Shown: positions 12,407 to 40,768 of the stretch, piece by piece | How positions within the stretch are numbered: the stretch's first letter is position 1 | How the letters are laid out: the number at the start of each line of letters is the position of its first letter | IMG/VR virus record: IMGVR_UViG_3300029922_000040 | Origin: a virus | Lineage: Duplodnaviria; Heunggongvirae; Uroviricota; Caudoviricetes | Length of the DNA stretch: 64,000 nt | Direction: 5' to 3' (one strand) | The notes under the pieces: model-generated | Seen by the model: only the letters and a program-made list of their open reading frames with translations | Databases searched by the model: none | What the model was told of the DNA's origin: nothing | Translations under genes and position numbers: made by a program

Positions 12407-13192
12407 ATGTCTCATTTTGCTGTAACCGTAATCGGCGAAGAACCGGAAAAACAGCTTGCTCCCTACCATGAATTTGAATGTACCGGCGTTGACAACGAGT
12501 ATGTTCAAAGTATAGATGAGGAAGCACGTGAAACGTGGAAGAGGGATGACGATGACTCCAAGAAACCCTTTTTAGAATTCCTTCAAGATTACTTAAAGAG
12601 CGGTCGGATAGGGCTTCATGGAACCCCCGGACTTCAAAGGTTAGACCCCAACTATGAACGGCCAAAGATTACGACCTGTTTGCCGATGTAGTCAAAGATA
12701 CGCCTGAAGCGTAAGATTCAGCGATTCTTCGCAGGGGAGGGGGTGAAGCCATTGACAAACCAATTCAGCCAATCACGATACTCGAAGGTGGATGGTCCCA
12801 AAATGATCTTATACCTGCTATTAGGTACAAGGTTACTTGCCCCGACGGATGGTACGAGTCAGCAAAAGACAACCTCTGTCACCTCTCAGGAGCCGAGAAC
12901 GGCGTTGATTGACGGCGCTCCGTAGGCACCGTATCGGAGGCCGCAACCAGCACGGTGCGACATCACCTGCACCCGTTCGGAATACATTGAAAGGGCACGG
13001 CGGAAAGCAATTACTACCTTTGCACTGGTAAAAGATGGCAAGTGGTATCAGAGGGGACGTATGGGTTGGTTTGCTTGTGTTTCAGATGAAAAGGATGAAG
13101 CCGTATGGCACCGCGAGTTCTCAGACCTGTTCGATGGCCTCCCAGATAACACGCTCATTACCATCGTTGATTGCCACATCTAAAAAGAATTT
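12407..13192 (+). pseudogene. apparently disrupted gene: protein-like segments in frame 2 (12407-12691), frame 1 (12658-12714, then 12715-12912 after an in-frame TAA) and frame 2 (12926-13192)
   Basis: Adjacent protein-like translations: ..LQRLDPNYERPKITTCLPM*, then TAKDYDLFADVVKDTPEA*DSAILRRGGGEAIDKPIQPITILEGGWSQNDLIPAIRYKVTCPDGWYESAKDNLCHLSGAENGVD*, then APYRRPQ..KWYQRGRMGWFACVSDEKDEAVWHREFSDLFDGLPDNTLITIVDCHI*. No single intact frame exists. Confidence 0.35.
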
Positions 13193-13885: not shown

Positions 13886-14617
13886 ATGAAAACAAAATGT
13901 GGATGTGTGGATACAGGGCAGTTTTTGCAGCTTTTTAATTCAGGGGCTCTACTTAACGAGATTGGCACAGAGCTTAATGTGAGCCAACGAACCCTGAGTC
14001 GAATCGTAAAACAACTAGGTTTGAACGCGAAGACACGCCCCAAATTTAAGGTGGCGAAGCCGTCATTAACCCGACAGGTGGGCAAAAAATATGCTTACCT
14101 CACTGTTGTTGGAACGGAGTACAACAGCCGGTTACATCAATGGGTGCTGACCATAAAGTGCGACTGTGGTCGTATTTCTACGGAGACGGCACCCAAGCTA
14201 GTCAACGGCGACCGTAAATCTTGCGGAGTTATCGGATGCTCCTATCGTGGAGTCGTACGTCAAGAAAACGGGAAGAAAGCAGGGTGGACGGGATGCGGGG
14301 AGATTTACGGATGTAGGTGGGATCAGTGGCGAATAGGTGCAGAAAAGCGAGGATTGGCGTTCGACATCAGCATTGAATACGCTTGGGAGTTGTTTGAAAA
14401 ACAAGGTCGTAAATGCGCGTTGACGGGAGAGCCGATAAGTTTTGGAAATTCGTGGAACCGAAAATGCACAGCTTCACTTGACCGAATTGACTCCGCTAAA
14501 CCTTACATTGAGGGCAATGTTCAATGGGTGCAGACGCGGGTCAATTTGATGAAACGTAGTATGGATGAGGCGGAGTTCATAGAACTCTGTGGATTGATAT
14601 GGAAGAACCGCTCCTAA
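13886..14617 (+). CDS. HTH + Cys-ribbon + HNH-like homing-endonuclease-type protein
   Basis: HTH-like segment LNEIGTELNVSQRTLSRIV. Cys module KCDCGRISTETAPKLVNGDRKSCG. C-terminal ASLDRIDSAKPYIEGNVQWV...VNLMK, which is typical of HNH homing endonucleases. Confidence 0.55.
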   Translation: MKTKCGCVDTGQFLQLFNSGALLNEIGTELNVSQRTLSRIVKQLGLNAKTRPKFKVAKPSLTRQVGKKYAYLTVVGTEYNSRLHQWVLTIKCDCGRISTETAPKLVNGDRKSCGVIGCSYRGVVRQENGKKAGWTGCGEIYGCRWDQWRIGAEKRGLAFDISIEYAWELFEKQGRKCALTGEPISFGNSWNRKCTASLDRIDSAKPYIEGNVQWVQTRVNLMKRSMDEAEFIELCGLIWKNRS

Positions 14618-15639
14618 CTCGCGACGAATTCAGGGGACTGGTTCTTGCCAGAGACCACAATACTTGTGCCCATTGCGGCTCGTCTGGTGTTCGGCTCGAT
14701 GTTCACCACATTATGGAAAGACGCCTTTTTGAAGATGGAGGGTATAGAATTTCAAATGGAATCTCACTTTGTTCAGACTGCCACGAAGCGGCGGAAGCAA
14801 CCACTATTGATTGTGCAACGCTTCGTGAACGAGCAGGAATCGCAGTTCCTTGCCTCCCTCCACACTTTGAAGCAGATGGTGTGTACGATAAGTGGGGTAA
14901 CGGAATCTTGCCTAACGGTCAACGACTTCAGGGAGAATTGTTTCTGGAGCCCGGAGTGCAGAAGGCTCTGCGGAACAAACTCTACCTATTCACCGACAAG
15001 GTGAAGTACCCTAAAACTTTTCATTGGCCTTCGTCCCCCGGTCTACAAAATGACGACCGGATGCACACGACCACCGACCAATGGGACGGGTTGGAAGTCA
15101 TCGTTACCGAGAAGCTTGATGGAGAGAATACCACCATGGCACGGGATTATATGCACGCCCGGTCGTTGGAATTTAGCACTCATCCATCTCGCACTTTCAT
15201 AAAAGCAATCTGGTCTCGGGTTGCCCACGACATCCCTGAAAATTTCAGAGTCTGCGGCGAAAATGTCACAGCGGTTCATTCCATCGAGTACCATGACCTC
15301 GCCTCCTACTTCTATGTGTTCAACATCTGGCATGGGCAGAACTGCCTGTCATGGGATGACACCGAGACCTATGCCGGTCTACTGGACCTGCCCACCGTGC
15401 CGGTTCTATACCGGGGTGTGTGGGAGGAAGGGCTGATAGATAGCATCGCCAGCGGTCTTGTACCTGAGCGGCAAGAAGGACTAGTCTTCCGTCCCACACG
15501 AGGATTTACTCTGAGGGAGTTCCCCCGGCTTATGGCTAAGTGGGTGAGGAAGGGACATGTGCAAACCGATGAGCATTGGATGAGCCAGCCTGTAAGGTTC
15601 AACCACCGCCCACACAGAGGAGGAAGTAGATGGGGATGA
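14599..15639 (+). CDS. HNH nuclease domain fused to an Rnl2-like RNA ligase (nucleotidyltransferase)
   Basis: N-terminal HNH (CxxC..HH..N..CSDCH). Ligase motif I TEKLDGEN, motif IV EGLVFRP, motif V AKWVRKG. Confidence 0.6.
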   Translation: MEEPLLTRDEFRGLVLARDHNTCAHCGSSGVRLDVHHIMERRLFEDGGYRISNGISLCSDCHEAAEATTIDCATLRERAGIAVPCLPPHFEADGVYDKWGNGILPNGQRLQGELFLEPGVQKALRNKLYLFTDKVKYPKTFHWPSSPGLQNDDRMHTTTDQWDGLEVIVTEKLDGENTTMARDYMHARSLEFSTHPSRTFIKAIWSRVAHDIPENFRVCGENVTAVHSIEYHDLASYFYVFNIWHGQNCLSWDDTETYAGLLDLPTVPVLYRGVWEEGLIDSIASGLVPERQEGLVFRPTRGFTLREFPRLMAKWVRKGHVQTDEHWMSQPVRFNHRPHRGGSRWG

Positions 15640-27902: not shown

Positions 27903-28361
27903 ATGATATTGGACGTTTACAACCAACTACCCGAAGCCACTCCCGAAACCGTCAAAGAGATGGGAGTAAAGTACGCTGAAATTTTTGGCTTGGCCGTCAA
28001 TCTAATTTTTGGCTTGGCCGTCAATCTACACCTTTTCGAGCAGGTCGTAGAGCGACTCATTGACAATGAGACCCATCAAATCCACGGCGGCGAAAGCCTT
28101 GCCGCGAGGGCTTGGCGTCTTTACCGGCTGGAGCAAAACCCCGGCTTGTTGGTGTTTCAGAATAACAACCTAGAGGTCATGATTTCCACACCCGGCATCG
28201 TGTGGACGACTCTTAAGGTCACCGGACATGAGACCACGCTGGCCGACTACCGGGAATTCATCGCCAGTCTCATCATCAAGCATGGTGCTGACACCCGGTT
28301 TTGTTTGACATCAGACCGTGGCGACGAATACTTCAATCTGCGAGTGCCGGGAGGCCAATGA
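27903..28361 (+). CDS. hypothetical protein containing a perfect 24-bp tandem duplication
   Basis: 27981-28004 equals 28005-28028 (atttttggcttggccgtcaatcta), giving IFGLAVNL twice. Confidence 0.55.
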   Translation: MILDVYNQLPEATPETVKEMGVKYAEIFGLAVNLIFGLAVNLHLFEQVVERLIDNETHQIHGGESLAARAWRLYRLEQNPGLLVFQNNNLEVMISTPGIVWTTLKVTGHETTLADYREFIASLIIKHGADTRFCLTSDRGDEYFNLRVPGGQ

Positions 28362-28621: not shown

Positions 28622-29896
28622 ATGGACATGAGAGAAGCCGCTGAATTCGTGTTGAACACCCTCCGCAAGGCAGGATTTGAAGCCTACTTTGCTGGTGGTT
28701 GTGTTCGTGACTTTGTGATGGGACGGACTCCTAAGGATTTTGATATCACAACCAATGCCCGTCCAGAGCAGGTCACTCCCCTGTTTGATAAGACCATACC
28801 AGTCGGTGCTGCATTCGGCGTCGTGGTGGTGATGGTGGGAGGGTTTCAGTTTGAGGTCGCCACCTATCGTGCTGACGGTGCCTACAGCGATGGCCGTCGC
28901 CCCGATGAGGTTACCTACAGCAATTCCGCCGAGGAAGATGTAAAGCGGCGGGACTTCACCATGAACGGGCTCCTGATAGCCAATCCGTTTGATGCCCTCA
29001 TGACCGATTACAGTCTCGGCGTCCTCGACTACGTGGGCGGCAGGGATGACATCGAAAACCGGGTCATCCGGTGTATCGGCAATGCCGACACGCGCTTCAA
29101 AGAAGATGCATTGCGGATGTTGCGTGCGGTTCGCTTCGTTGGTCAGTTAGGCTTCGAGATAGAGGCGGAAACCTTCAAGGCCCTACAGGCGAACGTGGAC
29201 AGCATAGTCAACGTCTCCCGCGAACGTGTTGCGGAGGAGTTGAAGAAGCTGACCACATCCAAGTTCGCTGCCAGAGGGTTGGCGGCGTTGGCGTCTACTG
29301 GTTTGCTGCGTCGTCTGCTGCCTGACGGTGTTTCCGATACGCGCTTCGCCTTTACACTGGAGCGGTTCGCTATGTTCCAAACAACCGACCCCGTGATGGG
29401 TCTGGCGATGTTGCTGGCTGATACTCAGACCAACGAGATGGCAGCGTTGACCTGCGACAGCTTCAAGCTGTCTACGGATGAACGTGACGCCATCTTGGGT
29501 GCGGTTAGAAATCAGGAAGCCATAGGTTCAATTGGCTCTCCGGCTGGTACCAAGCTGTTGGCTCGTGAGAAGGGTGTACTGCCGTATGCAGTAGACCTGT
29601 TCGAGCAGAACATAGGTTTGGGCTTTGCAAACGGTGTAGAGGCAGGGATGGATGCAGTACTGCGGTACAGGGCATTAACGCCGGAAGACATACGCCCATC
29701 ACCGTTTGTCTCTGGCCGGGATTTGATAGAGATGGGATTCACGCCGGGGCCGATGTTCACCACGGTTTTAAGGGCGGTGGAGTTCGGTCAATTAAACGGC
29801 ACATTGACCACCCGCGAACAGGCACTCGGCTTCGCTAAGTTCGAATCCGGGGTGCAGGAAACAGCAGCCTTCGTCAAGAGCGAAGCGGAAAGGTAA
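28622..29896 (+). CDS. cca: tRNA nucleotidyltransferase (CCA-adding enzyme) / poly(A) polymerase family
   Basis: The head-domain signature GGCVRDFVMGRTPKDFDITTNARPEQV and RRDFTMNG are present. Confidence 0.8.
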   Translation: MDMREAAEFVLNTLRKAGFEAYFAGGCVRDFVMGRTPKDFDITTNARPEQVTPLFDKTIPVGAAFGVVVVMVGGFQFEVATYRADGAYSDGRRPDEVTYSNSAEEDVKRRDFTMNGLLIANPFDALMTDYSLGVLDYVGGRDDIENRVIRCIGNADTRFKEDALRMLRAVRFVGQLGFEIEAETFKALQANVDSIVNVSRERVAEELKKLTTSKFAARGLAALASTGLLRRLLPDGVSDTRFAFTLERFAMFQTTDPVMGLAMLLADTQTNEMAALTCDSFKLSTDERDAILGAVRNQEAIGSIGSPAGTKLLAREKGVLPYAVDLFEQNIGLGFANGVEAGMDAVLRYRALTPEDIRPSPFVSGRDLIEMGFTPGPMFTTVLRAVEFGQLNGTLTTREQALGFAKFESGVQETAAFVKSEAER

Positions 29897-32597: not shown

Positions 32598-35500
32598 ATG
32601 GCATCGACTATTGTACGAATTGATAACCAAGTTTTGGTTCGCGACAAGGGTGAGGGTGAAATACTCCCGGTGGGAGCCCAAATTGGAAATTGGTTTGTCA
32701 AGGGGGATATTGAGTACACCTACGAAATCCCCACACAAACCCGACTTTGTTTTTGTGGAAGGTGTAAGGGGCTTAACTGGCATCATCCTCCGGGTTCAAC
32801 TTTGATTGAATGCGGTAGCGGATTCAATCCGGCGTTAGCTCCTGACTTAATACAGGATGGCAAAGCCCGATATGAAATGGGGGCACGAACGGAGGAGGAT
32901 TGCCTTCGTTTGTGGGATGAGAAAAAAGTAATCGCTGGAGCACTGCGTAACCCGAGTATTGAACACCCCGAGTGGGGCAACCGCTTCAACAGGTACAACA
33001 AATGGGGGCAGTATCTTGGAATTCCCGACTACATCACAACCGATGAGTTGTTGAATCTCCTCCATTCAAACTACATCGAAGAGCGGCTGGCGTGGACTCG
33101 GGAAGCTACGCACGCAGCAACAGTTGAAATACGTTCAGCTTTTCAAAATCTTTTGCTGGCTGTCATTGGCGACTACGGTGGTTGCTTGGATGCATGTGCG
33201 AAGAAACTGAACTTGTCGGTCGAAACTCTCATCCAACGTTTGTGCGACTGCAAGAACGACGATGAGCGGCGGCAACTACTAGAAACCCCTAAGGAGCCTG
33301 AGACCCCTAAGGTTAGCCCCCCCGATACATGCCCGAAACCTGAAGACATCCCCACGTCTATCAAAAAACTTGACAAATTGATGCGGACGTACCCCAGTGG
33401 ATACTATGGCACGGCTGCAAATATACCTGAGATGTTAATACAACAGATGAACCAGTTACTGTGGATGCATTTAGAATTCCACGGTCTCGAACGCTTACAA
33501 CAGTGCCTTGCTGAGTGCATGACTGATACTCGTAAGCAATTTACAACCCTCTTTGAACAGGTGAAACGTTACCGAACCGAGAATCGCAACTGGATGCAAG
33601 CGTATTGCGTTTATTGGTTCGCTCACAGCGGACATCTTCTTGGGTTCAATCTAAGCGAGGCCGGAGCCGGAAAAACCAGCACCGTATATGCAATTGCGAA
33701 GGAGTTGGAACTAGAGAATGTTCTTATCCTCGGTACAAAATCTACGATTGATAACGATAACGATAACGACAGTCAATGGAAGCTGATGGCAAAGAGGGAG
33801 AACGAGCACAGGCAAAACATCTTCAACTGCCGTGACGTATTCGACCTCAAGAAGTTGGAATCAAAGCGGCGTAATTATGTGCTAGTAACTGAGTACACGG
33901 TGCAGAACAACCCCGACCTAATTGACCAGCTTTCCAAGATTCGCTGGGATATGATTGTCACTGATGAGCCCCAAGTATTCTCCGGCTCTAATGATGATAT
34001 AGACAGTACCAAACGGCTGAATCATTACTGTCGTCTTATTAGTGCAGCAATACAACTTAACCCTCGGTGCTTGAGGTACCTCATGTCAGCCACCCCCATT
34101 CGGTGTGAGGCCGAAGAGCTTATTCGAGTATTGGAGATAGTCTCAGGTGATGAACTTAAGAACGCAACTGGCGAGGGTGTATCCGGCCTTTTGAAGCTCC
34201 GCTTGTTTCTGTTCCGCAATGGATTTCGCTTCTACATCAATCCTAACCTTCTACCCATTGTGAAGCCGATAACTCTTGGTGTATACGAAGAGGTTGAACT
34301 CTTCGAAGACCCAGTTGTGAACTGCGTCATTATGGCTCAGTATCAATCGAACATCCTTTCCGAGGGTCGCACGATACTGGACATGGAGGTTGAAATGCTG
34401 CCGAGGCAGTGTGAGATTATCGAATCCAATCCAGTGCTTAAAAAAGCGTTTGTAGAAGCTTCATGCCCCATTCTTTATACACAGTTCACCGACACAAAAA
34501 GCAATCGAATTGTCTTTGTGCTGAAAGAATGGGCTGAGAAAATGAGACCGGGGTACCCAGTGTACATCTACACTGGGATGCACAAGCAAGACAAGCTGCT
34601 CAAAATCATTAAGAGGCATAAAGGTAAATGTACCCTCATTGCCAGTGCCCCCCTATCGGTTGGTCTGGACGGTCTTCAGAATCTTTCTGACACCATGTTT
34701 ATCATGGGCTCTCCGTGGCATTACGCTAACTTCGAGCAACTTCATCGCCGTATACGCCGCATTGGCTCACCCTTCTTGAATTCTGGTGTGGCGTGCATCG
34801 TAATGCTGGCGAAGGATGCTGAGTATCACGAAAATCGTTGGTCACGGCTGTGTCAGCGGCGGCGAAGCAGCTTGGTTGTTTTAGATGGAACCATTGTCCC
34901 TATTAACCCAAAACGTATCGAACAGGAGTACCTCAGGAACAAGGATAACATCTTGCGGTTATCTGGAGTGGAAGTGACCCCCGCTGCCACCGTTGTGGAT
35001 ATTACCACGCCACTCAAGCCTCGGAAGTACACCCCACCTAGAACAGTAATGATGGATGTTCATCGGCTGTATGCGAACTCTCACTCAGCCACACTGCCAC
35101 CCAAACGGCAAGGTGACCTGCTTATCGCTACCACGGGTAGAACATATAATCTAGCTGAGTATCATGCTGCCAATGAACTCACCAGCAAAGCGTACAAGCT
35201 TGTGTATGATACCTTTGTAGTGAAGAGCACCAACCTACGTATTCTAAGCTTGGGCTGCGGTACAACTGAACCTAAGTATGCACAGGAACTTGGCCTCCAG
35301 AATGTAACTTTTGTGGACATGCTCTTGACAGAGGAAGCGTATATTGAGTACCCTCAAATTTTACGACTCGACCGAAATGCAACAAAACTTCCTGATGGTT
35401 CGTTCGACCTTATTGTGTCTGTCCTTTCAATATTCCGGTTGGATTACGAACGCAGCATCCGAGAAATGGCACGGCTATTAGCTCCTAAAGGCCGTGCCAT

Positions 35501-35654
35501 CATTATTGAATCCTACCAATCTGAGAAAGCTGGTGGTAAACTTTGGGTACGGGAGAATTTAACCAAAGCATTCAAACTCAACGGTCTGAAATTCAAAGAA
35601 CCAAAACAGATGCCTAACCGGCATCTCCTGTTTGAAATACGAAAGGGGAGGTAG
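32598..35654 (+). CDS. SF2 (Snf2/DExH-like) helicase fused to a C-terminal SAM-dependent methyltransferase
   Basis: Helicase motifs: Walker A AGAGKTS, DEPQ box, and motif VI QLHRRIRRIG. Methyltransferase motifs: ILSLGCGTT and LLAPKGRAII. Confidence 0.75.
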   Translation: MASTIVRIDNQVLVRDKGEGEILPVGAQIGNWFVKGDIEYTYEIPTQTRLCFCGRCKGLNWHHPPGSTLIECGSGFNPALAPDLIQDGKARYEMGARTEEDCLRLWDEKKVIAGALRNPSIEHPEWGNRFNRYNKWGQYLGIPDYITTDELLNLLHSNYIEERLAWTREATHAATVEIRSAFQNLLLAVIGDYGGCLDACAKKLNLSVETLIQRLCDCKNDDERRQLLETPKEPETPKVSPPDTCPKPEDIPTSIKKLDKLMRTYPSGYYGTAANIPEMLIQQMNQLLWMHLEFHGLERLQQCLAECMTDTRKQFTTLFEQVKRYRTENRNWMQAYCVYWFAHSGHLLGFNLSEAGAGKTSTVYAIAKELELENVLILGTKSTIDNDNDNDSQWKLMAKRENEHRQNIFNCRDVFDLKKLESKRRNYVLVTEYTVQNNPDLIDQLSKIRWDMIVTDEPQVFSGSNDDIDSTKRLNHYCRLISAAIQLNPRCLRYLMSATPIRCEAEELIRVLEIVSGDELKNATGEGVSGLLKLRLFLFRNGFRFYINPNLLPIVKPITLGVYEEVELFEDPVVNCVIMAQYQSNILSEGRTILDMEVEMLPRQCEIIESNPVLKKAFVEASCPILYTQFTDTKSNRIVFVLKEWAEKMRPGYPVYIYTGMHKQDKLLKIIKRHKGKCTLIASAPLSVGLDGLQNLSDTMFIMGSPWHYANFEQLHRRIRRIGSPFLNSGVACIVMLAKDAEYHENRWSRLCQRRRSSLVVLDGTIVPINPKRIEQEYLRNKDNILRLSGVEVTPAATVVDITTPLKPRKYTPPRTVMMDVHRLYANSHSATLPPKRQGDLLIATTGRTYNLAEYHAANELTSKAYKLVYDTFVVKSTNLRILSLGCGTTEPKYAQELGLQNVTFVDMLLTEEAYIEYPQILRLDRNATKLPDGSFDLIVSVLSIFRLDYERSIREMARLLAPKGRAIIIESYQSEKAGGKLWVRENLTKAFKLNGLKFKEPKQMPNRHLLFEIRKGR

Positions 35655-35658
35655 TAAC

Positions 35659-35958
35659 ATGGCAAAGTTAAAACTGGAATTGCAGCGTGGTGGGGTACAG
35701 TCTCTTGTGACCCCGAAGGGAACCAAAGTATTGACTGGAGTGCCGCGAGTTGTGGCAACCAAATTTGGTACATACTTTGTGTTTGCGAAGACAAACGAAC
35801 ATGCGGAGAGCCTCATCAAGGTCGAGGGAACCGGACACCGCGTGTTCGAAGAGTATACGGTTGATGGCGTCACTGTGTATCGTCAGACCAAGGACACACC
35901 CAACGGCCAACTTAAGAAGGGTGAGTGGCATGTTGACGCGGATACTGTAACCTTGTAG
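35659..35958 (+). CDS. small beta-rich hypothetical protein (99 aa)
   Basis: ATG 35659 with a ggggagg SD, 5 nt after the helicase stop. Confidence 0.5.
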   Translation: MAKLKLELQRGGVQSLVTPKGTKVLTGVPRVVATKFGTYFVFAKTNEHAESLIKVEGTGHRVFEEYTVDGVTVYRQTKDTPNGQLKKGEWHVDADTVTL

Positions 35959-36023
35959 AATTGTCTGAAGCGCCGATGATGGCTCGAACAAGATTCTGCA
36001 CAAGATTCTAAAGAAGGGACTCT

Positions 36024-38594
36024 ATGAATTTCTCAGAAGTAAAAGCACACAGTATCGACGGGGTGTTCTACCTGACGATGAGCACCCACCCCGAACTTGC
36101 CAAGAAGGGCCGTCCTTTGGCACTCGTCAAATCTGGAAGTATGACGTTCTCCGACAATCAAGTAGCATTCAAGGGAGAGTCTTATCCCTTGGGGCTCACT
36201 CTCGCTGAGAACACCCCTTTAACCATCATTTTCACCAACCACAACAGCCGAGTGTTCAACATCGAACGCGGTGTGCAAACCAAGAAGCTTGAGAACGGTG
36301 ACCTTTTCTTCCAAGGCGAGAACCGCAACCATGGTAACAAGACCAAGGAAGAAATAGCAGCCAAAGGGACCGGCTACCTCACCCTCAAGAACCGGCTGTT
36401 CTACCATCATCGTGGTGTGGAGACCTCCGGTGCAGTTTTACCCAAGTGGGCCGCAGATAAGAAGACCAACTGGCGCTTGGTATGGAATATTCTCGCCTTG
36501 TTACTCCAATGGACTTTGCAGAAGAGCGAGGATGTTGGAGACACAACAACAAACTGGACACCACACATCAAAAGTGTTGCCATGCTTCTAACCGACGATA
36601 GGGAGGTGTCTGCATACCGTCGCACGACGTTGTCAGCCGAATCCACGGCCATCATCGAGCGCATCCGCAAAGTGATTGTGGACTCCATGAACGCTCACTA
36701 TGCTACTCGTGGACGCGAGGCTAAGTTACCTCTCCCGAAAAATCTTCGCGACAACGCCAAATACCCAGCCAACTTTTCTGACCTTCGCTACTTCATATAC
36801 CGCCTCGACAAGTATGAGAAGGAAGAAAAGGTTAAGGTTCTCGTTTGTGGGGTGGCTGAGAGCGACCCGGAGACCCTTCTCGCTAATTATCTGAAAACAG
36901 AACTGGGTAAATTGAAACGCCACAAAGAGCCCCTCAAAGCACTCAAGGCGCTTTTCACCAATATAGAGGAAACCAACTGGGCCGATGGCATGGGGGAGGT
37001 CTGGATGAATGGTGCAAAGCCATGGAGCGGTAACCTCTTCAATTACATCGGCAAGATGCTGGCTGTCCCCCCCGCAGAAATGGGTGAAATATCCACTCGC
37101 TTTCAAGCTGTGTTGAAACAGCGTGAATCGAAGAATAGTCCTTACGACAAAGGCTGGCCGAAACACATCCGCATTGATGAGGACACATGGCAGGTCTCCT
37201 ACGACGTACGTGGAAAGAAAACCCTCCGGGAAGTGCTGGATAACAAGGTTCCGCATATCCAGTTCACCGCCCCGCTGGATTCAATCAACACTGGAAAAGC
37301 ATTTCGTCACACCGTAACGGCTGTTGGCGACGACTTTGTGGTCACACCTGAGTTCAAGCCTATGACACCGGGCTCCTGCGCTGCCAAGCGGTCATTGCAC
37401 GGCGTTTCACTCACCGATGGCAAGGGCACCGACCCCTTCAAGTTGGCCGTCCTAGTTCACCGTGATGATGTTGACCTGAACGCTAAGGTGAAAAAGGTCA
37501 TTGTGTCCTTCAAGACAGAGAAGCGCAAAGTGGTTAAATACGCCGACCAAAATGGTCGAAACTCTGGTCTTGCGGCACCAGCGACCAAGCAGGTGCCCCA
37601 GTGCTACCTCAACTTCTGCCTTGCAGAAGTCAAGACTAACGAGAAGTACGATACGCGGGGCACCGGGTCGGCAAAGCTCACCCTCGGATGGAAGCTGGCG
37701 AAAGACGACCAGTTGAAAATCGTTACCGAGTCTCTTCCGACCGGGCAGACAAACGACTACTACTTGCCTCTCGGCGAAGAGTGGAAGACCGAAGGACTCT
37801 TCGCTGAAGGATGTGACAGCACGAAGAAGGGCAACGTTTGGTCGCGCAAGTCGGGGTATACACTGGCATTCCGCACGTTATACGGATGGCCGGGTGAGGA
37901 AGCCATTAAAAATGCCCAGAAGGCAGAACTTCAGGCACACTTCCGCACAAATACTTTGACGTACAATTGGCTTAAGACTACCCTCTTGTCACTACCGGAG
38001 CAGCTTGACCTTCTGCTCAACGCGGCCAAGGATGAGGGGTACAAGCTTATGACTGAGGAGCAGCGGAACATTGTTGACGCGGCAGGTTGGCGTATGGTTC
38101 GCCAGTCTGGCATGGTTCGTTACATCAACGAACTCCGCATTGGTGCCGGGACGCTAACTACAACCTACAACACTAACCCAAGTCGTCAGAGCGAGAAGTC
38201 CAAACCGCTCGGCTCTAACCCCGAACTCCTTCGTCTCTGGCTTCGCTGGCTTGAGTTCAACGACCGCCTTCGCACTGTAGAGCGTATGGTGCGTGAGAAC
38301 CTGTTGGGACGCCGTAAAGCTTACTACTATGTTCTCGCACACCGCATCTGCGACCATGCGTCAACCATCTCTTACAAGAAATTGAACCTCAAGGACGCTT
38401 CAGAGAAAGAGACCCGCGCCAAGAAGAAGGACAAGGGCGACAAAATGGCTTCCGATGCTTCGCAGAAGTACCGCTCGTGGGCATCACTGGCCGAATTTAC
38501 AACCATCCTCAAGCACGTCGCATTCAAGCGTGGCGTGACGGTCGAGGAGGTTGTTGAAGCCCTTGTTGACAAAGCTCTGGCCGCGTCAGCTTAA
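36024..38594 (+). CDS. large hypothetical protein (856 aa) immediately upstream of the CRISPR array; candidate array-associated effector. The function assignment itself is low confidence.
   Basis: Clean ORF ending in a strong terminator 100 nt before the array. No HNH, HEPN pair or Zn finger is present. Weak RuvC-like D..E..D candidates lie in the C-terminal 200 aa: NIVDAAGWRMVRQSG, MVRENL and SDASQKY. Confidence 0.8.
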   Translation: MNFSEVKAHSIDGVFYLTMSTHPELAKKGRPLALVKSGSMTFSDNQVAFKGESYPLGLTLAENTPLTIIFTNHNSRVFNIERGVQTKKLENGDLFFQGENRNHGNKTKEEIAAKGTGYLTLKNRLFYHHRGVETSGAVLPKWAADKKTNWRLVWNILALLLQWTLQKSEDVGDTTTNWTPHIKSVAMLLTDDREVSAYRRTTLSAESTAIIERIRKVIVDSMNAHYATRGREAKLPLPKNLRDNAKYPANFSDLRYFIYRLDKYEKEEKVKVLVCGVAESDPETLLANYLKTELGKLKRHKEPLKALKALFTNIEETNWADGMGEVWMNGAKPWSGNLFNYIGKMLAVPPAEMGEISTRFQAVLKQRESKNSPYDKGWPKHIRIDEDTWQVSYDVRGKKTLREVLDNKVPHIQFTAPLDSINTGKAFRHTVTAVGDDFVVTPEFKPMTPGSCAAKRSLHGVSLTDGKGTDPFKLAVLVHRDDVDLNAKVKKVIVSFKTEKRKVVKYADQNGRNSGLAAPATKQVPQCYLNFCLAEVKTNEKYDTRGTGSAKLTLGWKLAKDDQLKIVTESLPTGQTNDYYLPLGEEWKTEGLFAEGCDSTKKGNVWSRKSGYTLAFRTLYGWPGEEAIKNAQKAELQAHFRTNTLTYNWLKTTLLSLPEQLDLLLNAAKDEGYKLMTEEQRNIVDAAGWRMVRQSGMVRYINELRIGAGTLTTTYNTNPSRQSEKSKPLGSNPELLRLWLRWLEFNDRLRTVERMVRENLLGRRKAYYYVLAHRICDHASTISYKKLNLKDASEKETRAKKKDKGDKMASDASQKYRSWASLAEFTTILKHVAFKRGVTVEEVVEALVDKALAASA

Positions 38595-38604
38595 AAACGA
38601 GAAA

Positions 38605-38638
38605 CGCGAGAGGATAATCAATACTCTTCTCGCGTTTT
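38605..38638 (+). terminator. rho-independent terminator after the 856-aa gene
   Basis: About 10-bp stem at 38605-38614 / 38625-38634, then TTTT 38635-38638. Confidence 0.55.
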
Positions 38639-38643
38639 CCTGA

Positions 38644-38672
38644 GGTTCTAGTTAAGGCAATTGGTGTATAAT
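38644..38672 (+). promoter_or_regulatory. extended -10 promoter (TGtTATAAT) for the CRISPR array leader
   Basis: TG 38665-38666 and TATAAT 38667-38672, about 20 nt upstream of the first repeat. Confidence 0.4.
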
Positions 38673-38692: not shown

Positions 38693-39468
38693 CCTGTAGA
38701 CTTACTGGATTTGAAGGCTGAATCCAACATAGCCGCCGATGCGTATATAGGTTCCTAACCTGTAGACTTACTGGATTTGAAGGCTGAATCCAACGGGAGA
38801 GCCCGAGGATAAAATCAATGGAGACCTGTAGACTTACTGGATTTGAAGGCTGAATCCAACAGAGATGATTGTTAATGAAAAGACATCAACCCTGTAGACT
38901 TACTGGATTTGAAGGCTGAATCCAACGTAACTTGGGTTGTGCCATAGGTGGCAACACCTGTAGACTTACTGGATTTGAAGGCTGAATCCAACCCAGCATA
39001 CTGAGGGCCGTCATTGGTTCTCCCTGTAGACTTACTGGATTTGAAGGCTGAATCCAACTAGATCAGGTATTCGGAGTCTGAGTAAAGCCCTGTAGACTTA
39101 CTGGATTTGAAGGCTGAATCCAACAGTCAGCTTTGGCACACCTGTAGATTTACTGGATTTGGAGGCTGAATCCAACGGAGGGATGTACCGTTGAACGTCG
39201 AAACCTGTATACTGGATTTGGAGGCTGAATCCAACATATTGCTGCACCGCTTACTGGATTTGAAGGCTGAATCCAACGAAGCTTGCCTTGGTACTGTCCC
39301 TGTAGACTTTACTGGATTTGAAGGCTAAATCCACCTACGGAACGCAGCCGTGATGTCTTTGGGTTGCCCGTATACCCACTGGATTTGAAGGCTGAATCCA
39401 ACCCTGATGGCACTCACGTGTGGATGGCGGAACCTGTAGACTTACTGGATTTGAAGGCTGAATCCAAC
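38693..39468 (+). CRISPR. CRISPR array: 13 repeats (6 intact, 1 intact with a truncated spacer, 5 degenerate or 5'-truncated, then a final intact repeat) with 12 spacers of mostly 30-31 nt
   Basis: Repeat CCTGTAGACTTACTGGATTTGAAGGCTGAATCCAAC has copies starting near 38693, 38759, 38825, 38891, 38957, 39023, 39089, 39141, 39205, 39249, 39299, 39377 and 39433. A 6-bp hairpin (TGGATT / AATCCA) sits near the repeat 3' end. Confidence 0.9.
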
Positions 39469-39540
39469 TTCGCTACGCTCACGGGAATTATGCTCTGCAA
39501 ATGGGTTTGTGGAACGAGCCCATCAAGAAGGGACTAAAAA

Positions 39541-39583
39541 AATCCCAAAAAACTATCCAAAACCTCGGAGTCTCCGATATACT
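39541..39583 (+). promoter_or_regulatory. conserved phage promoter copy 11, directly after the array
   Basis: TATCCA 39555-39560, 17 nt, TATACT 39578-39583; in-frame ATG at 39590. Confidence 0.5.
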
Positions 39584-39589
39584 ACATGT

Positions 39590-40003
39590 ATGAAGGAACT
39601 CCACATTACCTCATCGAAGATTGTGGTCTCGGCCAACAACCTGTGTAAGTCTGGGTACTCCGTCAGCCACAACGTGAAGGGTATCCTCCCCGGATGTCGT
39701 AAAGTTGCCATCCTTTTTGTTTCAACCAGCACAGGCTGTGTCTGGGTCAAAAATCTGTACAGCCACAACGGTGAGGCACACATCCATCCCGACCACTGGG
39801 CACAGCTTATCAAGGCCACGCCGGTCGTCTCCTCCACACTCAGGAACTTTGAGGTTACCCTGACCCCTGCGATTATCGCGGATGCTTACAACTACGTTAC
39901 GAGCATCACTGTTGAACCGGCCATCAGGAGCCAAGAGAAGTCCCCCAACTACATACCGAAGCTCGACCCTATGGTGGTCGTAGGAGATTCCAATGGCAAG
40001 TAA
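39590..40003 (+). CDS. hypothetical protein (MKELHITSS..., 137 aa)
   Basis: In frame with ORF 39509..40003; start placed downstream of the promoter. Confidence 0.5.
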   Translation: MKELHITSSKIVVSANNLCKSGYSVSHNVKGILPGCRKVAILFVSTSTGCVWVKNLYSHNGEAHIHPDHWAQLIKATPVVSSTLRNFEVTLTPAIIADAYNYVTSITVEPAIRSQEKSPNYIPKLDPMVVVGDSNGK

Positions 40004-40137: not shown

Positions 40138-40713
40138 ATGCCGCGTCTTTGTTGGTGGACTGAGGCCAACCCTCTCGCACTCGAAAGCGACACAGCGTTC
40201 TCCCGGCCACGCCTCAACACCAACTACATCCAGACTTCGTTGGATAGCCTGATTCACATGGTGTACCACCGGGGTCTCATCGACAGCCCCGACTATCAGC
40301 GGGGCTATGTCTGGACTCTGGAAGACAAGCAGAAACTTATTCGGAGCATTTTCAACCGGGCTGACATTGGCAAGTTCGTTTTCCTTGAGGATGAGAACTA
40401 CCGTGAGTATCGGCTGGAAGTCATCGACGGCAAGCAACGGCTTCGGGCTATCACGGAATTTTACGAGGGTCGCTTCGAGTTTGAAGGTAAGACGTGGTAT
40501 CAGCTTTCACGGCGGGACAAATATGCGTTCTGCGACATCATGATTCAAGCGGCTACGCTACAACGTGGTAAAGTCAAGCGGTCGGATGTTCTCTGGCTGT
40601 TTCTCCAGTTGAACGCTGGCGGCGTCCCTCAGACCGAGGAGCACATCGCCTACGCTCGTAAGCTGTACGAGGCTGAAATTGCGAACGAGAAGGACATGGA
40701 AATAATTTCCTGA
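40138..40713 (+). CDS. DUF262 / ParB-like nuclease-domain (GmrSD N-terminal-type) protein
   Basis: DYQRGYVW and VIDGKQRL motifs. Confidence 0.6.
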   Translation: MPRLCWWTEANPLALESDTAFSRPRLNTNYIQTSLDSLIHMVYHRGLIDSPDYQRGYVWTLEDKQKLIRSIFNRADIGKFVFLEDENYREYRLEVIDGKQRLRAITEFYEGRFEFEGKTWYQLSRRDKYAFCDIMIQAATLQRGKVKRSDVLWLFLQLNAGGVPQTEEHIAYARKLYEAEIANEKDMEIIS

Positions 40714-40748
40714 AATAGTATCCAAAACGTTGGTGTCTCCGATATACT
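40705..40748 (+). promoter_or_regulatory. conserved phage promoter copy 12
   Basis: TATCCA 40719-40724, 18 nt, TATACT 40743-40748. Confidence 0.5.
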
Positions 40749-40768
40749 AATCATGTGGAGGAAACACC

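Follow-up and report, generated by a model that had tools for sequence, protein, structure and literature searches.

A RuvC-inactivated, C-terminally truncated Cas12 upstream of a CRISPR array in a large phage genome

The locus described here lies in a 64,000-nucleotide stretch of a caudoviricete genome (IMG/VR record IMGVR_UViG_3300029922_000040; hereafter, the window) and consists of the gene of a large Cas12 protein, the effector, followed by a CRISPR array. Its features are collected in Table 1. As stated in a preliminary description of the sequence, the open reading frame (ORF) of 856 amino acids (36024-38594) sits directly upstream of a 13-repeat array (38693-39468). The gene opens with ATG behind the ribosome-binding site AGAAGGGA and runs for 856 codons, and the array, 13 copies of the 36-nt repeat CCTGTAGACTTACTGGATTTGAAGGCTGAATCCAAC on the + strand, starts 99 bases past the gene end. 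A 25-nt core of the repeat occurs 13 times, always on the + strand, compared with zero occurrences in 100 shuffles. The only promoter candidate for the effector gene listed in Table 1 falls within the end of the upstream gene for a 99-aa protein.

Table 1. Features of the effector-array locus in the window.
Feature	Coordinates	Strand	Basis
Conserved 1018-aa neighbour, possible partner	32598..35654	+	C-terminal S-adenosylmethionine (SAM)-methyltransferase domain, weak SF2-helicase match
Conserved 99-aa neighbour, possible partner	35659..35958	+	Immediately upstream of effector in all five lineages
Sigma-70-like promoter candidate, effector gene	35933..35961	+	TTGACG-17-TAGAAT, 10/12 consensus matches
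Effector gene, predicted nuclease-dead Cas12 lacking the target-nucleic-acid-binding (TNB) domain (V-U1/Cas12m-related large family)	36024..38594	+	856-aa ORF
RuvC-I remnant KLTLGWK, aa 551-557	37674..37694	+	MAFFT alignments and hhalign column mapping
RuvC-II remnant ISYKKLNLKD, aa 782-791	38367..38396	+	hhalign mapping, alignments, model secondary structure
Effector C-terminal end, aa 838-856 and stop	38535..38594	+	Alignments end at template column 688/745
Hairpin after effector stop (likely terminator or attenuator)	38601..38638	+	14-bp stem, -19.5 kcal/mol, z = -3.2
Array leader -10 element TGTATAAT, inferred promoter	38665..38672	+	Sequence reading; 21 nt before repeat 1
Regular array part	38693..39124	+	7 identical 36-nt repeats, 6 unique 30-nt spacers
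Eroded array part	39125..39432	+	5 repeats with truncated 5' parts, several 6-23 nt apart
Terminal repeat, perfect	39433..39468	+	Repeat comparison

The interval between the gene and the array holds a hairpin and a leader element. The hairpin had been called a strong terminator; "strong" is generous, as the U-tract is short and lies partly within the stem. The orthologous hairpin in the related locus L001 is a textbook terminator of -29.7 kcal/mol followed by UUUUU, and equivalent G+C-rich hairpins come after the effector gene in L001/L002, L010, L011, and L012. Similarly, the extended -10 promoter proposed for the leader stood only in part: TATAAT (38667-38672) is present with a TG and has counterparts in the relatives, but the TG adjoins the hexamer directly, one base off the TGnTATAAT register, and a two-hexamer consensus scan did not call the element. 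At the same position, L001/L002 and L012 have TGcTATAAT and L011 has TAATAT. The order of gene, hairpin, usually a -10 element, and then the array or its first repeat is common to five lineages, so that the association of gene and array is conserved rather than accidental, in agreement with the phage-borne gene-then-array layout recognized at the outset.

Within the window array, the regular part is followed by an eroded one, whose repeats keep the 3' hairpin. The array is the same in four contigs of the window lineage, and a further one, L037, lacks a single internal unit (spacer 8). Arrays also come directly after the gene in L001/L002 (about 35 repeats) and L010 (about 20); the L011 and L012 contigs break inside repeat 1. 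Repeats of the L001/L002 type, which belong to the closest homologue, P0001, agree with the window repeat in the 3' two-thirds and differ in the 5' third. As for the more distant homologues P0004, P0028, and P0029 (see below), the P0029 gene is followed by about 20 repeats, and the P0004 and P0028 contigs end about 130 nt past the gene, within a first repeat nearly identical to that of the window. The catalytically active relatives of loci L013-L015 carry arrays of 36-37-nt repeats with a 3' hairpin and then AAC. The window, four further lineages, and the active relatives consequently all have a single large effector adjoining a CRISPR array, as is typical of type V.

Two bases ahead of the spacer, the 3' part of the repeat can adopt a hairpin of six base pairs with a loop of 9 nt. 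Among 38 distinct repeat copies from three arrays, 98.7% of the hairpin cells were paired, compared with 69% in shuffles and at most 60% with slid partners, and double-sided changes were found in six of the six pairs (covariation of 0.80 versus 0.29). Between the window and L010, the stem is nearly wholly rewritten (UGGAUU/AAUCCA versus CUCAAC/GUUGAG), with the UG...UG ends of the loop kept. One-sided stem changes, when read on the + strand, comprised 10 G.U and 2 A.C (p = 0.039). This excess of G.U, together with the leader elements and the distal erosion, suggests + strand transcription of the array, driven from the leader. No tracrRNA-like anti-repeat (trans-activating CRISPR RNA) was found within three mismatches of the 25-nt core across the 64 kb, and the predicted guide is a CRISPR RNA (crRNA) only, with a scaffold derived from the 36-nt repeat and its covarying hairpin. 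Rfam and tRNA scans of the window were empty. The repeat core had no match in IMG/VR or in 185,579 species genomes and was found in metagenomes only on contigs from samples that hold P0001; because of its absence from the species genomes, no host adaptation system that might serve the array was identified.

The protein itself had been assigned to no recognizable family. This is true of Pfam, NCBIfam, and PDB sequences, which gave zero matches at E ≤ 10 (phmmer/hmmsearch), but not of PADLOC and PHROG: the PADLOC models Cas12u1 (E = 1.3e-5, over 98 of 533 positions) and Cas12f (E = 5.4e-5) match residues 742-844, and a TnpB-type "transposase" of PHROG matches residues 763-845. All matches in curated libraries are weak, local, restricted to residues 742-845, and belong to the TnpB/Cas12 superfamily. 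Motif counts agreed with the preliminary description, with no CxxC (six Cys in total) and one RxxxxH, at R124. The latter is part of a family-wide motif, FRAYxTHxGV, and its interpretation as a HEPN remnant was rejected.

Only one close homologue was found among 5.8 billion proteins, namely P0001 (844 aa, 53-55% identity), which is present on six metagenomic contigs and was also the sole recovery of a word-indexed search with a 13-sequence alignment. An exhaustive profile search of 1.8 billion representatives yielded 27 relatives with E-values down to 1.6e-14. The nearest of them is P0004, for which two further relatives, P0028 and P0029, were found; this clade is 22-25% identical to the window protein, and P0004 had no match in IMG/VR. 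The large relatives (690-854 aa) match the PADLOC models Cas12u1/Cas12f nearly end to end (P0014 over positions 7-526 of the 533 in Cas12u1, E = 4e-30), and the best solved relative of P0003 is "UnCas12m4a". They form a family of large (690-850-aa), virus-encoded, array-linked Cas12 proteins, which includes P0003, P0005, P0011, P0014, and P0021 and the loci L013-L015, and lie on viral contigs of 55-133 kb. Their source annotation is "hypothetical protein" or "transposase", and no name for the family was found. The active members are 19-22% identical to the window protein. When the window protein and its orthologue P0001 were compared with ten large relatives by hhalign (A1 versus A7), the match had a probability of 99.94% and E = 3.4e-37 over 629 columns and spanned residues 35 to 846, so the homology is not confined to the RuvC region but extends to the N-terminal WED/REC parts. 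The N-terminal motifs FRAYxTHxGVETD and GWP are common to both.

The predicted fold leads to the same superfamily. An AlphaFold model built from the 13-sequence alignment had a mean confidence (pLDDT) of 72 and a predicted template-modelling score (pTM) of 0.48, and showed the TnpB-derived bilobed fold with a C-terminal RuvC (RNase-H-like) domain. In a Foldseek comparison with the PDB, the first 37 places were all occupied by Cas12/TnpB, with Cas12m2 at the top (8hhl, E = 2e-9); Cas-lambda2 and CasPhi were among the matches ranked below it. The best fold match is Cas12m2 and the best sequence model Cas12u1; PDB sequence searches with the effector or its profile found no Cas12m. The two checks recommended in the preliminary description, a search for an RNase-H-like fold and a search of metagenomes for array-linked homologues, were both positive, which is the opposite of what it had named as evidence against its proposal, a lack of any nuclease fold and homologues never linked to arrays. 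With fold, homology, and array linkage pointing in one direction, the effector is near-certainly a Cas12, and its earlier placement as a single-protein CRISPR effector of the RuvC/Cas12 (type V) lineage stands. The most fitting description is that of a truncated offshoot, catalytically inactivated, of a family of large virus-encoded Cas12 proteins that is related to V-U1/V-M and apparently has no name.

The inactivation is seen at all three RuvC motifs. In canonical relatives, these are G(L/I/F)D(I/L)GWR, a strand ending in Glu (RLNVE, IIIEN), and CxxC...CxxC...DQDxNAA. At the position of the catalytic Asp of RuvC-I, the window protein has Thr553, P0001 has Lys, and the P0004 clade has Val or Ser. 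The position of the RuvC-II Glu corresponds to Lys790 according to hhalign, and an alternative MAFFT register places K785 there, which is also Lys; in the model, residues 786-790 form a beta-strand directly after a long helix (733-782). The third motif is missing altogether. The chain stops right after the RuvC beta-strand that is followed, in the relatives, by the Zn ribbon (TNB) and then the RuvC-III DxDxNAA helix: it continues for 12 residues past the last position matched by hhalign, and the Zn ribbon and RuvC-III are left without a counterpart. Thus the TNB zinc finger is indeed absent, as had been noticed. Since P0001 terminates at the same point, the truncation is not a sequencing artefact. 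A supply of RuvC-III in trans was considered and rejected, given that a strict regular expression found no DxDxNAA in any frame of the 64-kb window. The sister clade (P0004/P0028/P0029) has lost the Asp of RuvC-I and that of RuvC-III (there replaced by Tyr) and has retained the Zn ribbon. The Asp-Glu-Asp triad of type V is accordingly not present in the effector (Thr553, Lys790, no motif III); the loss of the triad, as in Cas12k and Cas12m, makes it a derived, inactivated member of type V and does not exclude it from the lineage. Alignment evidence allows the confident statement that the effector is not a canonical nuclease; on the same evidence, it is a RuvC-inactivated, C-terminally truncated Cas12.

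Despite this loss, the protein appears to be under constraint. Full-length effector ORFs are found in five lineages with 80 invariant residues, many of which are Trp, Gly, or Arg. Between the window protein and P0001, residues 701-850 are 64-70% identical, compared with 55% overall, i.e., the dead RuvC region is the most conserved one. Moreover, an identical effector protein occurs on 19 contigs from several samples. Judged by sequence, the effector gene is neither a pseudogene nor decaying. Two shorter family members, P0010 (486 aa) and P0022 (455 aa), are also devoid of the Zn ribbon and RuvC-III, with non-acidic residues in RuvC-I (Arg and Asn) and, in P0022, a Ser at the RuvC-II position; they may be further independent nuclease-dead truncations, or fragments.

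The 32 distinct full-length spacers from three lineages are mutually unrelated. Pooled spacers were searched against the window, all fetched loci, the INPHARED phages, and the PLSDB plasmids, and three 22-nt seeds against IMG/VR and one against the species genomes; the pooled spacers gave no credible match, and the seeds were all without a match. Two partial matches of 17/18 nt were noticed, one between an L001 spacer (12807-12835) and a helicase/methyltransferase-like gene of a related phage (L012, 566-583), and one between an L010 spacer (5420-5451) and the effector gene on the same contig (L010, 4021-4038). Both were rejected as protospacers, being at chance level for the number of queries (E ~0.02 each), and are noted only for the case that binding tolerant of mismatches matters. 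Within the P0001 lineage, arrays of separate samples differ at the leader-proximal end only, where L001 has two private spacers and L002/L008 have one. Such differences fit polarized acquisition and are suggestive only, since differential deletion explains them equally well; as a proof of acquisition, they were rejected.

Taken as a whole, the locus is read here, with a probability of about 0.68, as a minimal phage-borne type V system, in which Cas12 has been turned from a nuclease into a protein that only binds DNA under RNA guidance. The reading follows from the anatomy shared with the binders TldR and dCas12f and from the functional resemblance to Cas12m2 that it suggests. By analogy, and with moderate confidence, the output would be the silencing of a rival element or a host gene by binding alone. 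Each crRNA would have a repeat-derived 5' handle with the hairpin, followed by the guide, which is the arrangement of Cas12a, Cas12i, Cas12j, Cas12m, and Cas-lambda. [quoted passage not shown] Among the 89 window ORFs, no Cas1, Cas2, Cas4, or other Cas protein was detected, and for new spacers the array would have to rely on adaptation proteins from another source, either the host or the remaining phage genome.

The general ideas have precedents. Cas12m2 defends the element that carries it through silencing by binding, not through cleavage (PMC10442227, PMC11656645), and uses a 36-nt repeat-derived scaffold (PMC10442227). TldR and dCas12f proteins combine RuvC decay with C-terminal truncation and retain RNA-guided DNA binding (PMC10705468, PMC13472631). 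CRISPR loci that lack adaptation genes or nucleases are found in jumbo phages (PMC11656645), and viral Cas12m-like ORFs may lack RuvC motifs, according to a survey limited to proteins of at most 800 aa (PMC12607003).

Nevertheless, the effector does not coincide with any of the known systems. Cas12m (V-M, formerly V-U1 clade 2; represented by Cas12m2 of Mycolicibacterium mucogenicum, PDB 8HHL) has about 600 aa, making the effector some 250 residues longer, and keeps an HCCC zinc-finger TNB inserted in RuvC, whereas the effector chain, with its six Cys and no CxxC, ends before the TNB position. The triads of the Cas12m clades are HDD, HEK/HQK, DED/NED, and DND (PMC10442227); Thr / Lys / absent fits none of them, and direct sequence similarity to Cas12m is limited to about 100 residues. 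With the large viral Cas12 family, in comparison, the effector shares full-length homology, N-terminal motifs, the gene-then-array layout, and 36-37-nt repeats with a hairpin and AAC, but that family keeps Asp-Glu-Asp and the CxxC...CxxC Zn ribbon with DQDxNAA, and has no 99-aa and 1018-aa neighbours. TldR/dCas12f resemble the effector in the loss of the RuvC triad, the truncation of the zinc finger and RuvC-III, and an otherwise intact fold and RNA interface, and some of them are phage-encoded. Unlike the effector, they are small, use a single guide of the omega-RNA type, have lost the association with an array, and have a fixed partner or target (fliC, oppF, rpoE); the locus in question has an 856-aa protein and arrays of 13 to about 35 units with diverse spacers, and no sigma factor or flagellin gene was seen among the Pfam-scanned neighbours. 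Cas12k (V-K CRISPR-associated transposons) needs a tracrRNA and the Tn7-like proteins TnsB/TnsC/TniQ, whereas the effector locus has no anti-repeat, and Tn7-type genes were found neither in the Pfam scan of the neighbours nor among the best 25 of the 59 PHROG families. Cas12c processes its crRNA with a RuvC site that has stayed active. CasPhi (Cas12j) and Cas-lambda are likewise phage-borne single effectors with an array, 36-nt repeats, no adaptation genes, and no tracrRNA, but they are active nucleases whose RuvC also processes pre-crRNA (PMC12141684), and they have no detectable similarity to the effector in PDB sequence searches.

Several observations weigh against a binding-only system. 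With no protospacer for any of the 32 spacers, the targets, the PAM, and the choice between DNA and RNA are without support. Half of the array is eroded, and the only variation within the window lineage is the loss of one unit, leaving current adaptive use of the array unproven. The structural model is of medium confidence only, the pre-crRNA would have to be processed without a RuvC site, and interference by a lytic phage against a competitor through binding alone is no more than plausible. Finally, Asp791, which is conserved in P0001, adjoins the RuvC-II position, and D/E811 is conserved too, so that a non-canonical one-metal site near these residues is formally conceivable.

The last point touches on the proposal of the preliminary description, in which the RuvC nuclease, though highly divergent, is still active, has its catalytic residues at new positions (e.g., D685 / E753 / D811), and cuts without a zinc finger. 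This would suit the retained and well-conserved RNase-H/RuvC fold as well as the acidic residues at 791 and 811 near the former site, and relocated catalytic residues are known from some TnpB/Fanzor proteins (PMC10705468). The nominated residues, however, fail: in the 55%-identical P0001, D685 is replaced by Thr and E758 by Gly, E753 and E758 are located in the helix 733-782 before the RuvC-II strand and hence outside the active-site strands, and the counterpart of D811 in relatives with an intact catalytic site is Lys or varies. All three canonical positions (Thr553, Lys790, missing RuvC-III) are lost. The positions in the C-terminal half that are acidic in all five dead lineages are only D484, E703, D747, and D/E811, of which D747 is invariant in the active relatives as well and apparently structural family-wide, and a relocated triad was rejected for the want of enough conserved acidic residues. 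As triad decay with truncation of the zinc finger and RuvC-III gives binders elsewhere (PMC10705468, PMC13472631), an active nuclease is extremely improbable. Decay of the entire locus, with a disused Cas12, an eroding array, and a truncated gene heading for loss, or its variant, a decoy soaking up crRNAs that belong to a related system, can be considered very unlikely. It would account for the half-eroded array, the unit deletion as the sole variation in the window lineage, the lack of adaptation genes among the window ORFs, and the lack of targets for the spacers. It does not agree with intact full-length ORFs across lineages at 22-25% identity or with a RuvC remnant that is the most conserved region. 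Moreover, compensatory and G.U-only changes have preserved the repeat hairpin, eroded repeats included, the leader hairpin and the -10 element are conserved, and leader-proximal spacers differ between otherwise identical arrays. The decoy variant, in particular, finds no compatible repeat in the 185,579 species genomes.

A different role for a dead Cas12 would be that of a targeting module recruiting a partner, i.e., the 99-aa protein, the 1018-aa protein, or a host factor, resulting in modification, remodelling, degradation, or transcriptional activation of the target instead of simple roadblock repression. Comparable pairings are those of Cas12k and Tn7 proteins and of dCas12f and sigma-E. 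In each of the five lineages, the two neighbours directly precede the effector and share its strand. The 99-aa protein, with a sub-threshold match to DUF7352, is better conserved across the clades (37-46% identity) than the effector (22-25%). The 1018-aa protein (28-55% identity, syntenic in all lineages) matches Pfam Methyltransf_11 (E = 2e-7) and, below its cutoff, ResIII (E = 1e-3). Both genes are missing from the surroundings of the active relatives (L013-L036). The association thus goes together with the loss of the nuclease, a pattern reported for dCas12f-rpoE (PMC13472631). On the other hand, the wider region is syntenic as well: the gene order in the P0004 clade is as in the window, with PARP, the CCA-adding enzyme, a protein of ~1060 aa, one of ~95 aa, and the effector, and the adjacency, which may reflect a shared phage backbone, is in itself no proof of a partnership. 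A promoter-like site of its own may also serve the effector, the neighbours include no known partner family (no sigma factor, TniQ/TnsC, or Cas3), and in one contig the 1018-aa gene is split between two ORF calls. Such a partnership is regarded as the main rival reading, but as a tentative and rather unlikely one. Its more specific form, a three-gene module (1018-aa protein, dead Cas12, 99-aa protein) with an array, into which the Cas12 of one group of jumbo phages would have been captured as it lost its nuclease, and in which a crRNA-guided Cas12 would deliver a partner enzyme to chosen sequences, is unlikely; if true, it would be a viral RNA-guided DNA (or RNA) methylation/remodelling system or a transcription switch during infection. 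The contig with the divided gene is L037, which encodes an identical effector and is one array unit short; the two ORFs (2225-5281) have 649 and 364 aa, and the split is either genuine variation or a fault of the assembly.

That binding of DNA under RNA guidance, with no cut, is selected for in its own right is shown most clearly by natural "dCas" proteins. So far these comprise Cas12k, which belongs to transposons, Cas12m, which is mostly plasmid-borne, and TldR/dCas12f of bacteria and prophages. What the locus contributes is a large Cas12 of jumbo-type phages that appears to have lost all catalytic residues along with TNB and RuvC-III, and has kept the array, the repeat hairpin, and the constraint on the scaffold. 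No description was found in the literature of the large viral Cas12 family, nor of a dead Cas12 that lacks the TNB and keeps a full array. The family can be arranged as a decay series, from an intact triad and Zn ribbon (viral relatives) to a dead site with a Zn ribbon (sister clade) and to neither (window clade). Binding-only function would raise the questions of whether phages silence rivals or hosts by CRISPR-type systems, how crRNA matures without RuvC, and whether the TNB is dispensable for R-loop formation. Such a natural binder could also find use in CRISPR interference or as a scaffold for effector fusions, albeit 856 aa is not especially compact. Should the neighbouring genes turn out to be partners, the locus would gain much in interest.

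The window genome is that of a large (jumbo-type) phage. Its ORFs match 59 PHROG families, nearly all genes are on one strand, and the content is typical of very large phages, including a ClpB-type AAA protein, PARP, a CCA-adding enzyme, RNA ligase, many HNH, and TnpB. The window had no match in the INPHARED phage collection. The TnpB (402 aa; 20973-22178, +) is encoded 14 kb upstream of the dead Cas12, has Pfam OrfB_IS605 and a Cas12f1-like TNB, and is matched by PADLOC Cas12f models down to 1e-13. The possibility that the effector is a recent derivative of this TnpB was rejected because the two have no significant similarity. The PARP catalytic-domain protein (23472-24977, +) and the CCA-adding enzyme / poly(A) polymerase (28622-29896, +) are also syntenic upstream of the effector in L011; no tRNA genes were detected in the 64 kb.

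Some further genes and elements are worth recording. The ORF at 2-2557 (+), listed with 851 aa and possibly extending past the window edge, contains the "shoulder" (E = 4e-23) and repeat (E = 4e-10) domains of the major vault protein, an unusual content for a phage genome. The array is followed, some 670 nt downstream, by the gene of a 191-aa protein that contains the N-terminal domain of GmrSD (DUF262; 40138-40713, +; E = 2.8e-19); the orthologous phage L001 also encodes a GmrSD_N protein, at another place (2995-3834, -). The GmrSD_N gene of the window is flanked by two copies of a 63-nt intergenic element (39536-39598 and 40701-40763, +), which are 75% identical with the exact core TATCCAAAAC..GTCTCCGATATACTA. 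Both copies end in a ribosome-binding-site-like GGAA just upstream of a gene, and the element may be a phage-specific promoter or a motif of the 5' untranslated region. An HNH endonuclease domain is fused to an RNA ligase domain in a 346-aa ORF (14599-15639, +), and two ORFs of the window match one PHROG RNA ligase family. Finally, a 24-nt unit, AATTTTTGGCTTGGCCGTCAATCT, is perfectly duplicated in tandem at 27980-28028 (+).

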